Shown here: piece by piece, positions 20,911 to 64,000 of the stretch
How the letters are laid out: the number at the start of each line of letters is the position of its first letter
Numbering within the stretch: position 1 is the stretch's first letter
Assembly: GCA_020279385.1 (NCBI GenBank)
Contig: GCA_020279385.1_4762.1
Direction: 5' to 3' (one strand)
DNA length: 64,000 nt
From: a phage
Program-made: the position numbers and the translations under genes
The notes under the pieces: generated by a model
The model's database searches: none
Seen by the model: only the letters and a program-made list of their open reading frames with translations
Told to the model about the DNA's origin: nothing

Positions 20911-21414
20911 TTAAATTAAAGAAAATTTGTAAATCTCTATCAGATCGCCGTTACACGCGTAAACTTCCTCGATCTCATCAAGGATCATGGTCGTCCCTGT
21001 CTTGTATATGCACTCGCGCTCATCTGCCAACATAGCATACAAAGACAGTCGAGTAGTCGGATTGTCATACTCTTTAGACACCACTCGGTCAATAGCATGT
21101 TCGTAATAATTCATGCAAGGCTTGGTAGGTTTTATTGCAATAATCTTTCCTGTTGCATAAACATCGGTTGCAAAGTCCTCTGCTGTTGATTGCAGTGGCG
21201 TAAAGCTCATAGGACGCTCTACAACGAAAGAATCGCCTACAATTAAGGTATCCAGCTTACGGCCTTCTCTTTTGCTCACACCGCGATACAAGGCTTCATG
21301 ATGCACTAACCGCTCAGTCTTTTCGATCAATCCATTAAGGATCGACATATCGATATTTTCTTTAGAGTTCATCACTTCATCAATGATGTTAAGTTCTTCT
21401 GGTGTAAATTGCAT
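20911..21414 (-). CDS. modA: ADP-ribosyltransferase, ModA/ModB-like
   Basis: ART signature: R (ALYRGVS), S-T-S-like (SFTPLQST), E-x-E (ADERECIY); start at internal ATG with SD GGAGG. Confidence 0.7.
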   Translation of the reverse strand: MQFTPEELNIIDEVMNSKENIDMSILNGLIEKTERLVHHEALYRGVSKREGRKLDTLIVGDSFVVERPMSFTPLQSTAEDFATDVYATGKIIAIKPTKPCMNYYEHAIDRVVSKEYDNPTTRLSLYAMLADERECIYKTGTTMILDEIEEVYACNGDLIEIYKFSLI

Positions 21415-21418
21415 AATA

Positions 21419-21448
21419 AAAAAAGCCTCCAATCTTTCGACGGGAGGC
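21419..21448 (-). promoter_or_regulatory. Hairpin plus U-tract in the modA leader that sequesters the SD (terminator/attenuator-like)
   Basis: - strand RNA GCCUCC-loop-GGAGGC then UUUUUUUAUU then AUG; the 3' arm is the SD. Confidence 0.45.
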
Positions 21449-21496
21449 ATAATAAAACCATTATAGAGTAGTGTCAATCACAAAGTGTATGTGATC

Positions 21497-21533: not shown

Positions 21534-22463
21534 ATGAACTATAAACGTATTTATGATAACCTGATTGAACGTGCTAAGACTAGAACTATCGACGGATATA
21601 CAGAAAAGCATCACATCATACCACGTTGTATGAATGGAAGCGATGATGATAGCAATCTAGTTAGACTCACCCCAGAGGAACATTACATTGCTCACCTTCT
21701 GTTAGTTAAGATTTACCCAGATAACAGTAAATTGGTTTATGCTGCAAATATGATGTGCGTTTCTTCTGATTCACATAATGGAGAAAGACAGTCAAATAAA
21801 CGTCATGGTTGGTTGCGTAGAAAAATGGCAGAGGCACATAGTAAAAGAATCCGCGATAGAATGGAGAACGATCCTGAATATAGAGCTAAGGTTTCGGAAT
21901 GGGCTAGAAAAATGGGTAAAGCCATGAAAGGAGTTAAGCGAGGACCGGAATTTAGCAGAAAGTTGGCAGAAAGAAACAGAAATACCGTGATGAAAGAAGA
22001 AACTAAACGTAAAATCGGGGAAGCCAACAAAGGAAGGAAACGTACAGAAGAATATAAAAGAAAACATAGTGAGCGGTATAAGGGTGAAGGTAATCCGATG
22101 TATGGTAAACGAGGAAAGGAACATCCGGCATATGGTACTAAACCGTGGAACAACCAAACATCATTTGTTGAGCAGAAAGCATGGTGGCGGTTCGCTGGCA
22201 TGTTCTATGACTGGTATCAGATGGATATTGACCGTGGGAAACATAAACGCCACGGTCATAAAAGAATGCTTGATGAATTGGGTTTTGTTGGTTGGCGAGA
22301 AAAAGAGCCAGCCGCAGCAAGACGATCAATTGAAATGTTTGCTAAAGGCTGGAATCCTTATGAAGACCAAGAATGGTTAGATTATATTAATACCCGCTTT
22401 CCAAACGACGATAGTTTTCCGCGTTCTTCAACATATACAAAACAAACAAATCCTTTGCAGTAA
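21534..22463 (+). CDS. Free-standing HNH homing endonuclease with NUMOD-like repeats
   Basis: HNH motif (EKHHIIPRCMNGSDDDSNLVRLTPEEHYIAH); repeated basic NUMOD-like modules; opposite strand to neighbours; 3' end overlaps gp56 3' end. Confidence 0.85.
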   Translation: MNYKRIYDNLIERAKTRTIDGYTEKHHIIPRCMNGSDDDSNLVRLTPEEHYIAHLLLVKIYPDNSKLVYAANMMCVSSDSHNGERQSNKRHGWLRRKMAEAHSKRIRDRMENDPEYRAKVSEWARKMGKAMKGVKRGPEFSRKLAERNRNTVMKEETKRKIGEANKGRKRTEEYKRKHSERYKGEGNPMYGKRGKEHPAYGTKPWNNQTSFVEQKAWWRFAGMFYDWYQMDIDRGKHKRHGHKRMLDELGFVGWREKEPAAARRSIEMFAKGWNPYEDQEWLDYINTRFPNDDSFPRSSTYTKQTNPLQ

Positions 22464-60674: not shown

Positions 60675-61271
60675 TTATTTGGTAGTACCGTCAATAAAAT
60701 GTTTACGGCACACAGAGACATATTTATCCTCTGCACCAACTTCTATTTGAGCACCATCGCGAATAACATTACCATCTTTATCTACGCGAAGGACCATAGT
60801 CGCTTTCTTGCCACAATGACAAATACCCTTCATTTCGACCAGTTTATCAGCAAATGCCATTAATGCCGCAGATCCTTCAAATAGATTGCCCTGAAAGTCA
60901 GTGCGAAGGCCATAGCACAGTACAGGGATATTTGCATCATCAACAAGCGCACACAAGCCTAAAACATGCTCTTTAGTCATAAATTGGGCTTCATCTACAA
61001 ATACTGCATCTGGACGCCAGCGATCCGTTCTACGCTTACCTAGTGATTCACGATAAACCAAGTCGAAAAGATCATCCGATTTAGTGAAGGTGATCGCTGG
61101 AGCACTTAGACCAATTCGGGAAACGACTTCACTTTCTGAATCTCGATTATCAATCGCTGGCTTAAGAATTAATACTCGCATATCACGTTCGGTATAGTTA
61201 TAAGCACTTTGTAACAGAGAAGTTGATTTGCCAGCGTTCATAGATGCATAGTAGAAATATAATTGCGCCAT
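60675..61271 (-). CDS. tk: Thymidine kinase
   Basis: Walker A YASMNAGKST; zinc-binding cysteines near C-terminus; ~198 aa. Confidence 0.9.
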   Translation of the reverse strand: MAQLYFYYASMNAGKSTSLLQSAYNYTERDMRVLILKPAIDNRDSESEVVSRIGLSAPAITFTKSDDLFDLVYRESLGKRRTDRWRPDAVFVDEAQFMTKEHVLGLCALVDDANIPVLCYGLRTDFQGNLFEGSAALMAFADKLVEMKGICHCGKKATMVLRVDKDGNVIRDGAQIEVGAEDKYVSVCRKHFIDGTTK

Positions 61272-61564
61272 TAATTAATCTCCAAAAATCCAACAAGACC
61301 TAAACCGATATAAGTCCAGATACCAATAAAAAAGATGTTAATGCTCATGGCAAGGATAAACCCTTTCAGAGTTTTGGGATACCCGACCCAATATTCCCGA
61401 CCATCTTCTAACCGGATCAACTTATTTCCTTGCGAGTCCATATCAACCACAACATGTTTATTTCGAGATTGCAATAGATATTGTTTTACAATCTCTACAC
61501 CCGCCATAATAACAATAACGAAAATAAAAGTCCACACAACAAGATTAATGATAGTCTCAAGCAT
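61271..61564 (-). CDS. Small membrane protein (97 aa)
   Basis: Two hydrophobic helices; coupled to tk. Confidence 0.55.
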   Translation of the reverse strand: MLETIINLVVWTFIFVIVIMAGVEIVKQYLLQSRNKHVVVDMDSQGNKLIRLEDGREYWVGYPKTLKGFILAMSINIFFIGIWTYIGLGLVGFLEIN

Positions 61565-61799
61565 TTTCTATCACCTCCACCCAATCAGGTGTTTCCTGAA
61601 AGACTCCTTCACCTTCATGATGGTCGCAACCTTTATTGCTGCAATACATCCACCAATCCCACATTCCCCACGGTAAACGCTGCATATCGTCGTTACAGCA
61701 AGTGAAGATGATAGGCCAACCACATCTAACACATCGGCAGTTTTCCTTCATGTGAGCGGTATTAGACTTCTTCATAGATGACTCCAATATAATCGACAT
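61557..61799 (-). CDS. Hypothetical Cys-rich protein (80 aa)
   Basis: ORF on early strand. Confidence 0.5.
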   Translation of the reverse strand: MSIILESSMKKSNTAHMKENCRCVRCGWPIIFTCCNDDMQRLPWGMWDWWMYCSNKGCDHHEGEGVFQETPDWVEVIENA

Positions 61800-62002
61800 T
61801 TACATTTAGGACAATGCGGTTCTTTAATATAATACCCGTCTGTCTTTGGAACACTAACAGGAGCGGTTTTTATATTGTATTCAGTGAAACAACGAAAACA
61901 AGTTACGTTTTCTACAGACTGACGTTTCACCCAATCACCGGAATATAGATCATTTTTATTTGTCATATTCAACCACCACAATGTTAATGTCTGGAGTAGC
62001 AA
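61772..62002 (-). CDS. Hypothetical Cys-rich protein (76 aa)
   Basis: ORF on early strand. Confidence 0.5.
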   Translation of the reverse strand: MLLQTLTLWWLNMTNKNDLYSGDWVKRQSVENVTCFRCFTEYNIKTAPVSVPKTDGYYIKEPHCPKCKCRLYWSHL

Positions 62003-62411
62003 TATTAATGATCTCTTCTACACATTCCCACTCAAGGCCACCGATACCGCAACCGATTTTAGGAATATAGAAAGGCTGTATAGCACCTTCAAAAACATCA
62101 TTGATAGTCTCAAATCCTTTCAGGATAGCACCATATTCAGCATTTGGACCCGGTCGGAATTGGGTATATAGATTCACCCCGCACCAGTTATAACCATTAA
62201 CTTGATGCGTCCAGACACTAAACCCACCCAGCTTTTCTACCTTACCGCGAGAAGTTTGCTTGTCAATCTCTAACGCTTGCGGGAACTCTTTCGCGATCTT
62301 TGCAGCAATACCAGCACCCATAGTATGAAAACAATTACAACCATGAATTAAATGACCGTTTCCTTGTTTAAACAGGGCGATGAGATCGCCCTTTACAGTA
62401 TCAATAATCAT
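61956..62411 (-). CDS. Macro-like domain protein (ADP-ribose binding/processing family, tentative)
   Basis: Motif LIHGCNCFHTMGAGIAAKIAKEFP resembles macro-like (Macro_2-type) domains; 151 aa. Confidence 0.55.
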   Translation of the reverse strand: MIIDTVKGDLIALFKQGNGHLIHGCNCFHTMGAGIAAKIAKEFPQALEIDKQTSRGKVEKLGGFSVWTHQVNGYNWCGVNLYTQFRPGPNAEYGAILKGFETINDVFEGAIQPFYIPKIGCGIGGLEWECVEEIINIATPDINIVVVEYDK

Positions 62412-62426
62412 AATATAAACCTCTCA

Positions 62427-62786
62427 TTAGTCACGGGAAGACAACCCAGCCATAAAACGGCTTAACAGTGTGTCGCGATAAGCAAAGCATAATTGCTTAT
62501 CAGGGGCAGTATCACAAAGGTTGCGTTTTGTTTTAGCAAAGCTGGCAATACTCAGATCCCATGCTCGATTTTTTCGTTTTTCGTCTCGACCTTGTTTGTA
62601 TGCTTCGTCAAGTTCGAGCGCGATAAAATCGCTACACATGTTATCATCATCACAGAAGGTTTTAATGATCTTTTTGTTGATCTCAAATCCTTTGTATTCG
62701 AACTTTGGATAAGGGCGCTCATTACTAGCAAGCGCACCAGCAGAGAACATCATAGCAATCATAGCAATTATTGTCAACTTTTTCAT
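62427..62786 (-). CDS. Secreted small protein (119 aa) with signal peptide
   Basis: N-terminal MKKLTIIAMIAMMFSAGALA; several Cys. Confidence 0.6.
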   Translation of the reverse strand: MKKLTIIAMIAMMFSAGALASNERPYPKFEYKGFEINKKIIKTFCDDDNMCSDFIALELDEAYKQGRDEKRKNRAWDLSIASFAKTKRNLCDTAPDKQLCFAYRDTLLSRFMAGLSSRD

Positions 62787-62793
62787 ATATTCC

Positions 62794-63384
62794 TCAATAG
62801 CGTTTAGTTTTAAGAATGCCTTTACTCTTTAGATGGTTAGCCTTTTTTAGTACGTCATCAGCATAACCTAAACCGGCTTTATAGTTCCACCCAGCATTGT
62901 AAGAAGCTAGCGCGAGTCGGATATTACCGTTTCGAACATCCAGCCAGTATGCTAACTCATCCATCGCGTAGAATGCAGAAACCTCGCGATTCATGATAAA
63001 GTTGATAGTCTGGCGATCACTCATTTTAACACCGCGCTTTGCATTTTTCGCTTTCACCGTTTTAAGGTAATTTTGAAATAATCCATAAGCATGATGATTT
63101 TTCTTTGGTGCTAAGTTTGCACCCGCGCTTGATTCTTGCCATGCGATACCCGCCAGGATGTGACCTAAACCCTTTCCGTTATAGCGAATATTCGGATGGT
63201 ACTTTTTCAACTTACCGCTTTTCTCGAATTGCTCGCCGTATTGATAGGCGAAATGTAAATTATCTAGTTGGTGTGCTGTAAAGTTGTCTATCGGCGCTTT
63301 TTTGATCGGTGCGCTAGTCGATGCGTGTGTAGCACCAACGGCTAGTGACAGACTCAATAATATCGCTTTTAGAACTTTTAACAT
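62794..63384 (-). CDS. Secreted lytic transglycosylase (SLT domain)
   Basis: Signal peptide MLKVLKAILLSLSLAVGATHA; SLT motifs (AWQESS, GLFQ, SYNAG); SD AGGAG. Confidence 0.7.
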   Translation of the reverse strand: MLKVLKAILLSLSLAVGATHASTSAPIKKAPIDNFTAHQLDNLHFAYQYGEQFEKSGKLKKYHPNIRYNGKGLGHILAGIAWQESSAGANLAPKKNHHAYGLFQNYLKTVKAKNAKRGVKMSDRQTINFIMNREVSAFYAMDELAYWLDVRNGNIRLALASYNAGWNYKAGLGYADDVLKKANHLKSKGILKTKRY

Positions 63385-63418: not shown

Positions 63419-63447
63419 ATAATATAGCCAGATCACCAGAAAGTCAA
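63419..63447 (-). promoter_or_regulatory. Early sigma70-type promoter upstream of the SLT gene
   Basis: rc TTGACT-17nt-TATTAT. Confidence 0.5.
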
Positions 63448-63470: not shown

Positions 63471-63893
63471 TTATTGGTCTACCTTCAAAACAACCGCCGA
63501 CATTTTACCCGCCAGTCGTTTTGGATTCTCTATAATCATTCGGCAGCATAGACCGTGATATGGCTTACCCTCTTCGATTAGATCTACTGTCATCCCGATC
63601 CACATGTTACCGTCAGTAATTTCTAATCGATTCGGTCGGTCTTCCATTTTCAGGAAGTCGAAGATCTCCGGCAAACGAGTTTCTATCTTATTGAATAGTT
63701 CCATTGTCTTATGTTCATCAATATGACGATCGGTTAGACGGTCGATCATATGCGGACTAAAGCGAATGAAAATATACTCACCGTAACCATCATTCAAGCA
63801 CTTTTCTTTGATCTGCGCATTGGTTTTGCGCATTTCGGTTTCGAAGAATCTACGCAGCTTACTACGGCGAACATGTACGTTAATTGTTTCCAT
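63471..63893 (-). CDS. regB: Endoribonuclease RegB
   Basis: Strong identity blocks to T4 RegB (RRSKLRRFFE, RLEITDGNMW, CRMIIENPKRL.GK); start at internal ATG. Confidence 0.9.
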   Translation of the reverse strand: METINVHVRRSKLRRFFETEMRKTNAQIKEKCLNDGYGEYIFIRFSPHMIDRLTDRHIDEHKTMELFNKIETRLPEIFDFLKMEDRPNRLEITDGNMWIGMTVDLIEEGKPYHGLCCRMIIENPKRLAGKMSAVVLKVDQ

Positions 63894-64000
63894 TTTATTA
63901 TCCTTTCTTAAACAAATTGCGAATCCAGTATACAAACGGGATTTCTTTAAACTTGAATTTCTCTATAGTTAATTCTTTAGTAGCAAAATGAATACCATAA

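Follow-up and report, generated by a model that had tools for sequence, protein, structure and literature searches.

Bacteria use DarT toxins to ADP-ribosylate DNA, a form of anti-phage defence that has been recognised only recently, and phage-encoded erasers of this mark decide which phages grow on strains that carry DarTG. T4 lacking both adfA and adfN stays resistant to DarTG2, which predicts another factor, and AdfN, a NADAR protein, acts only on the guanine marks left by DarT1 (PMC11825919). In a transposon-sequencing screen of T4, tk.4 was the single significantly depleted gene on DarTG2 hosts; it was depleted only when DarTG2 was present and behaves as dispensable without it, and a clean tk.4 knockout is DarTG2-sensitive (preprint 10.1101/2025.11.20.689424). 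The gene was renamed adfM (anti-DarT factor Macrodomain), and enzymatic removal of ADP-ribose from DNA was proposed on genetic support (preprint 10.1101/2025.11.20.689424).

Phage PhiKZ gp104, the "AdfM" of chimalliviruses, also counters DarTG2 and removes T-linked ADP-ribose from oligonucleotides in vitro; this late-expressed protein is DarG-like, with an Asn23/Lys78 pair, and undergoes import into the phage nucleus (PMC13309987). The bacterial macrodomain SCO6735 from Streptomyces coelicolor cleaves dT-ADPr DNA and protects against DarT; the Q85A replacement abolishes hydrolysis of dT-ADPr DNA and N27S nearly does so, and a water-mediated, lysine-independent mechanism was proposed by its authors (PMC9411070).

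Here, we analyze a tk.4 gene in a 64,000-nucleotide stretch of phage DNA, referred to in full as the window. Since tk.4 is already annotated and its T4 orthologue has been characterised genetically as adfM, neither the gene nor its likely role is new, and the window adds no new biology in this respect. A modest new point beyond the literature consulted, as judged by sequence alignments, is that T4-type AdfM proteins have a glutamine in place of the catalytic lysine of DarG.

The tk.4 gene in the tk–regB region

The window is from a Krischvirus, an RB49/JSE/Phi1-like relative of T4, as judged by a nucleotide identity of about 98%. The 2.5 kb around tk.4 are 98–99% identical at the nucleotide level to the Krischvirus phages vB-Eco-KMB43, JSE, Phi1, RB49 and GEC-3S, and 58 records cover the region. 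The tk.4 open reading frame occupies positions 61956..62411 on the minus strand, including the stop codon, and encodes from an ATG start a single macrodomain of 151 residues with a predicted mass of 16.6 kDa and a pI of 5.3, which is 100% identical to a protein of phage FL04. The initial annotation had described a 151-residue protein with an HGCNC...MGAGIA motif but had given no strand; the reading frame is confirmed on the minus strand, with H23-G-C-N26-C27 and M31-G-A-G-I-A36 present in the translation. It had missed the identity of the gene, named tk.4 and with its A1pp/macro motif already annotated: the records of JSE, T2 and T4 all name the gene tk.4 and carry the note "contains A1pp phosphatase motif", so that both the gene and its macro-type motif have been in public annotation for years.

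Homologues of tk.4 were found by tblastn in 2732 of 50,697 phage records (58 at ≥95% identity), with one copy per record. When a profile built from 104 relatives was run against 1.84 billion representatives of 50%-identity clusters, 18,287 clusters matched at E ≤ 1e-3, of which 1349 also passed E ≤ 1e-30. This wide spread of homologues argues that tk.4 is no chance reading frame.

The ORF list and family matches identified tk, vs, vs.1 and RegB as neighbours, which bears out the earlier placement of the gene in the tk–regB region. All genes lie on the minus strand, in the order regB (63471..63935; Pfam REGB_T4), vs.1 (62794..63384; SLT lytic transglycosylase domain, 8e-6), vs (62427..62786; PHROG 1256), tk.4, two genes for small zinc-binding proteins, a gene for a 97-residue hydrophobic protein, tk (thymidine kinase, 60675..61271), rI and rI.-1. 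A Shine-Dalgarno sequence, GAGG, read directly at 62420..62423 (minus strand), is located 8 nt 5' of the tk.4 ATG and right behind the vs stop codon at 62427–62429.

A sigma-70-type promoter sequence, TTGACT-17-TATTAT, was found by consensus scan between regB and vs.1 at 63419..63447 (minus strand), where it is also annotated in phage GEC-3S; we infer from its position that it is likely the early promoter of the vs.1-vs-tk.4-...-tk unit. The strongest sigma-70-like match of the region is a different site, TTGACA-17-TATGAT with an extended -10 TG (11/12), at 62749..62777 (minus strand) just inside the start of the vs reading frame. Transcripts that start here would include tk.4 but miss the start codon of vs; the site could serve as an internal promoter or simply match by chance.

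Two small cysteine-rich proteins are encoded directly 3' of tk.4, at 61557..61799 and 61772..62002 (both minus strand), and the pair matches the Pfam "Phage zinc binding domain" families PF23895 (5.7e-34) and PF23903 (1.8e-23). In JSE, the annotated ATG start of the second zinc-binding gene lies inside the end of tk.4, and the resulting 11-nt overlap hints at translational coupling. On the other side of tk.4, both vs and vs.1 start with a signal-peptide-like hydrophobic N-terminus (MKKLTIIAMIAMMFSAGALA and MLKVLKAILLSLSLAVGATHA, respectively); if the vs product is exported, this would be odd for a "valyl-tRNA synthetase modifier". T4 vs was the most depleted gene in minimal medium (HIDEN-SEQ preprint 10.1101/2025.11.20.689424).

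The protein of the window aligns with the Tk.4 proteins of T4 and T2 at 45% identity over the full length (151/155 residues), with two gaps of 1–2 residues. The order regB-vs.1-vs-tk.4-small ORFs-tk is identical in the window, JSE, T2 and T4, and the window and T4 proteins are both single macrodomains of similar size (151 versus 155 residues) encoded at the corresponding place between vs and tk, with the motifs HGCNCFHTMG, NLYTQ and IG.GIG common to both. The two phages belong to different genera, Krischvirus and Tequatrovirus, and 55% of the residues differ. The DarTG2 phenotype is known for T4 alone, and its extension to the phage of the window is by analogy; we found no literature linking Krischvirus with DarTG. 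A homologue of T4 gp61.2 (AdfA, an anti-DarT1 factor) was not detected in the window by tblastn at E ≤ 1e-3.

The Tk.4 protein of the window is 67–69% identical to copies in Vequintavirus-like phages of roughly 135–143 kb (MaxTheCat, Bas59 EduardKellenberger and a record labelled Campylobacter phage A135), and merely 44–50% identical to Tequatrovirus and Mosigvirus copies, a pattern that suggests gene exchange between unrelated phage groups.

Fold and class of the Tk.4 macrodomain

The initial annotation had tentatively called the protein macro-like, and this assignment now stands on profile and structural matches. Pfam Macro (PF01661) scores 28.7 bits against a gathering cut-off of 22 and spans residues 22–135, covering model positions 1–118 of 118; PHROG 335, labelled "phosphatase", matches at 1e-61. 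The DarG model of PADLOC matches at 3.9e-14 over model positions 3–141 of 329, and NCBIfam antitoxin_DarG matches at 7.9e-13 over positions 2–141 of 338, with 48.4 bits against an equivalog cut-off of 250.

An AF2 model of the window protein, computed from the alignment of 104 relatives with the T4 sequence left out, has a mean pLDDT of 97.2 and a pTM of 0.91. The predicted structure is a macro fold (three-layer alpha/beta/alpha) that matches 197 PDB chains at E ≤ 0.001 in Foldseek, and among the 50 matches listed nearly all are macrodomains or serine hydrolases designed on a similar scaffold. The top matches are, in order, TARG1, Poa1p, the DarG macrodomains of T. aquaticus and M. tuberculosis, BT1257 and SCO6735, all with a probability of 1.00. 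Human TARG1/OARD1 (PDB 4J5R/4J5S) is thus the closest structural match (E 7e-11, TM 0.77–0.84, 28–29% identity), the DarG macrodomains follow with a TM of 0.78, and yeast Poa1p has a TM of 0.65–0.71 with an rmsd of 4.3–4.8 Å and a profile E-value of 2.8e-12. When the PDB was searched with the profile, BT1257 scored 64 bits, SCO6735 59, TARG1 58 and DarG 53 and 46, and with the single sequence M. tuberculosis DarG came first (5M3I, 4.8e-8). Based on the model and these matches, the protein of the window is assigned to the TARG1/DarG (ALC1-like) macrodomain class.

The relation to DarG, the antitoxin of DarTG2 (PDB 5M3I, 5M3E, 7OMU), is that of a homologous macrodomain with the same presumed substrate. 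Tk.4 does not, however, qualify as a DarG itself: with 151 residues as compared with about 330–360 for DarG, the protein has no C-terminal DarT-binding domain, it has Gln84 in place of Lys80, and there is no adjacent darT, the flanking genes being vs and the gene for the small zinc-binding protein of family PF23903. PhiKZ gp104 likewise shares the name AdfM and a macrodomain, but the two belong to different domain lineages: the Tk.4 type has the glutamine and lies in an early operon.

BT1257 from Bacteroides (2FG1/2AFC; 1e-16) and SCO6735 (5E3B; 7e-15) rank highest when the profile is matched to the PDB. With the profile and the single-sequence search differing in their rankings, the shared glutamine is the chief reason to place the family closer to these two than to DarG. 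All are free-standing proteins of about 150–180 residues with glutamine for lysine, and all keep the asparagine and the residues of the glycine loops. SCO6735 and BT1257 differ from the Tk.4 family in carrying 5–6 extra residues after the glutamine, a "mobile loop" that includes Lys89 and Lys94 in SCO6735. Tk.4 further differs from SCO6735 in being phage-borne and acidic (pI 5.3 versus 9.6 for the aligned part of SCO6735), without a basic surface for DNA.

The predicted active-site glutamine

Two glycine-rich loops and the glutamine define the predicted active site. Residues 23–36, HGCNCFHTMGAGIA, encoded at 62304..62345 (minus strand), comprise Asn26 and the predicted first glycine-rich, ADP-ribose-binding loop; residues 119–125, IGCGIGG, encoded at 62037..62057 (minus strand), form the predicted second, diphosphate-binding loop. 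Both loops are conserved among the 104 relatives and ADP-ribose binding is predicted: N26, G24, M31, G34 and A36 are present in 104/104 sequences and H23 in 100/104, and in the second loop G120 and G122 are present in all and G125 in 101.

HMMER alignments place Gln84, in the codons for Y82-T83-Q84 at 62160..62168 (minus strand), in register with the lysine that serves catalysis in DarG (K80) and TARG1 (K84). The N-L-Y-T-Q84 segment aligns with N-F-P-T-K of M. tuberculosis DarG, and Gln84 aligns with the lysine of L-I-T-K84 in TARG1 and with the glutamine of N-M-I-G-Q in SCO6735 and BT1257. The glutamine is present in 103 of the 104 relatives, the single exception being a lysine, and T4 Tk.4 has the same NLYTQ and hence the same glutamine. 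The counterpart of the second loop is PRIGCGLAGG in SCO6735 (Gly126/Gly128) and BT1257, and RIGCGLDR in TARG1. Both members of the TARG1 Lys84/Asp125 dyad are replaced in the window protein, by Gln84 and by Gly124 of the GCGIGG loop. After conversion of the chain numbering to that of the paper, Q84, N26 and G122 correspond to Gln85, Asn27 and Gly128 of SCO6735; N26 also aligns with N22 of DarG.

Since Gln84 and Asn26 match Gln85 and Asn27, the residues needed for hydrolysis by SCO6735, these alignments suggest that the Tk.4 family shares the catalytic arrangement of SCO6735 and not the lysine of DarG and TARG1. Gln84 would thereby tie T4-type AdfM mechanistically to SCO6735, and N26 and Q84 are the targets for mutagenesis.

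Proposed function and origin

Taking together the full-length identity to T4 Tk.4, the synteny, the single copy per genome and the common active-site residues, the protein is best read as the Krischvirus AdfM, and we consider it probable that it is an early hydrolase stripping DarT2-derived ADP-ribose from thymidine in single-stranded phage DNA. In the proposed mechanism, the DarTG2 toxin–antitoxin system of the host sets free DarT2, an enzyme that ADP-ribosylates thymidine in single-stranded DNA of the phage; Tk.4, presumably made early in infection given the early-type promoter upstream of the operon, would bind the ADP-ribose via its two glycine-rich loops and hydrolyse the ribose–thymine bond, restoring replicable DNA. 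Gln84, held by Asn26, would sit where DarG and TARG1 have their catalytic lysine, and with this replacement catalysis would take the lysine-independent, water-mediated route proposed for SCO6735. The suggestion of the initial annotation that the protein could counter ADP-ribosylating defences of the host agrees with the genetics of the T4 orthologue on DarTG2 hosts. By analogy, we infer that the activity and role are those of T4 Tk.4, SCO6735 and PhiKZ AdfM; as DarT2 systems are diverse and the identity to T4 Tk.4 is 45%, the specificity could differ. Two traits speak against a role on DNA marks, the acidic pI and the lack of the 5–6-residue, lysine-bearing DNA loop of SCO6735, but T4 Tk.4 has both traits too, with a pI of 5.9.

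A protein that blocks DarT2 mainly by binding, with hydrolysis secondary or absent, is an unlikely alternative that draws on two observations. Loss of catalysis in the Q85A variant of SCO6735 did not stop it from inhibiting DarT in vitro, and the inhibition was stronger than with dead DarG or TARG1 (PMC9411070), and the phage anti-DarT factors AdfA and AdfB work by direct inhibition. The protein of the window is, however, without the C-terminal domain by which DarG binds DarT, and N26, Q84 and the glycine loops are conserved almost absolutely across phages and bacteria. These residues would not be kept constant by binding to a toxin that varies, and the conservation therefore points to selection on catalysis.

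The labels "phosphatase" and A1pp motif in JSE, T4 and PHROG 335 raise the question of a small-molecule enzyme that acts as a phosphatase on ADP-ribose-1''-phosphate or as a deacetylase on O-acetyl-ADP-ribose. Among the leading fold and profile matches is yeast Poa1p, an Appr-1''-p phosphatase, and TARG1/OARD1 also deacetylates O-acetyl-ADP-ribose, as its PDB name records. We nevertheless regard such an activity as quite improbable: the "phosphatase" label comes from an old domain name and not from an assay, Poa1p fits the model less well than TARG1 and DarG do (TM 0.65–0.71 against 0.77–0.84), and a small-molecule activity leaves the DarTG2-specific phenotype of T4 tk.4 unexplained.

A further reading has Tk.4 directed at another ADP-ribose-based defence, acting on RNA or protein marks or on signals such as the His-ADPR of type II Thoeris, which the macrodomain of ThsA binds. 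SCO6735 also acts on protein substrates (PMC9411070), and the spread of the family over unrelated phage groups would suit a broad-spectrum eraser. Against this stands the screen in which tk.4 scored, which was directed at DarTG2 and returned tk.4 as the sole significant gene (preprint 10.1101/2025.11.20.689424), and we judge it very unlikely that another defence is the main target.

The initial annotation had also proposed that the protein could tune ADP-ribosylation by the phage itself, citing a ModA-like ADP-ribosyltransferase at 20.9–21.4 kb. An ADP-ribosyltransferase is indeed encoded there (20911..21477, minus strand; PHROG 832 "RNA polymerase ADP-ribosylase", 6.7e-21), but it resembles T4 ModB (33% identity over 113 residues, 4e-8 by tblastn) and not ModA, for which tblastn found no match in the window at 1e-3. 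Its listed start is TTG and the true start may be an internal ATG; it is the single Mod-type gene detected in the window, as compared with modA and modB in tandem in T4. Adjacent to it, a 309-residue reading frame at 21534..22463 (plus strand, opposite to its neighbours) has a NUMOD3 motif (9.5e-7) together with a weak match to HNH that stays below threshold, and is probably a homing endonuclease inserted beside the Mod-like gene.

A writer and an eraser encoded in one genome is a common arrangement, and the Mod-family enzyme, like Alt, would be the source of the marks. T4 Alt, ModA and ModB are, on the other hand, arginine-specific ADP-ribosyltransferases. TARG1/DarG-class macrodomains cleave ester- and thymine-linked ADP-ribose, and we know of no cleavage of arginine-linked ADP-ribose by this class. 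With the family abundant in phages and bacteria that have no Mod or Alt relative nearby, and with T4 tk.4 depleted and its mutant defective only when DarTG2 is present (preprint 10.1101/2025.11.20.689424), the proposal finds no support and the reversal or tuning of the phage's own marks is highly improbable.

Returning to Tk.4 as a putative AdfM-type hydrolase of DarT2 marks, its relatives in bacteria bear on where the family comes from. When one genome per bacterial species was scanned with a sequence pattern, relatives at roughly 40–47% identity turned up at 508 loci, mostly free-standing proteins of about 150 residues with N-x-Y-T/S-Q, many of them on megabase chromosomal contigs. Marine Rhodobacterales (Ruegeria, Roseovarius), Desulfobacterales, Shewanella and others commonly carry free-standing Tk.4-like macrodomains of the glutamine type on their chromosomes. 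All-against-all BLAST of the ORFs within 2 kb, carried out for 80 of the 508 loci, revealed no neighbour family common to more than 9 of the 80 and thus no sign of a conserved toxin partner, a search that a divergent toxin could escape; the neighbour families common to the loci appear by eye to reflect lineage-specific housekeeping synteny.

Given the conserved glutamine and an architecture without further domains, descent from a free-standing bacterial protein is no less likely than descent from a truncated DarG2. We tentatively suggest, as a possibility short of an even chance, that T4-type AdfM/Tk.4 proteins are phage copies of a very large clade (1349 clusters at 50% identity, E ≤ 1e-30) of free-standing, glutamine-type bacterial macrodomains, and not "orphan DarG2 antitoxins". 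Because the family is common as a free-standing bacterial gene with no conserved neighbour, its ancestral role was probably broader than the reversal of DarT2 marks.

Knowing tk.4 as adfM in RB49/JSE-type phages helps to predict host range, which matters because several phages of this type have been isolated with phage therapy in mind. If the proposed origin is true, T4-type AdfM would use the lysine-independent chemistry of the SCO6735 type, and Tk.4 might act on marks besides those of DarT2, for instance ester-linked ADP-ribose on proteins or other ADP-ribosylation of nucleic acids; T4-type AdfM proteins would then be broad-spectrum erasers and not counter-defences against a single system.
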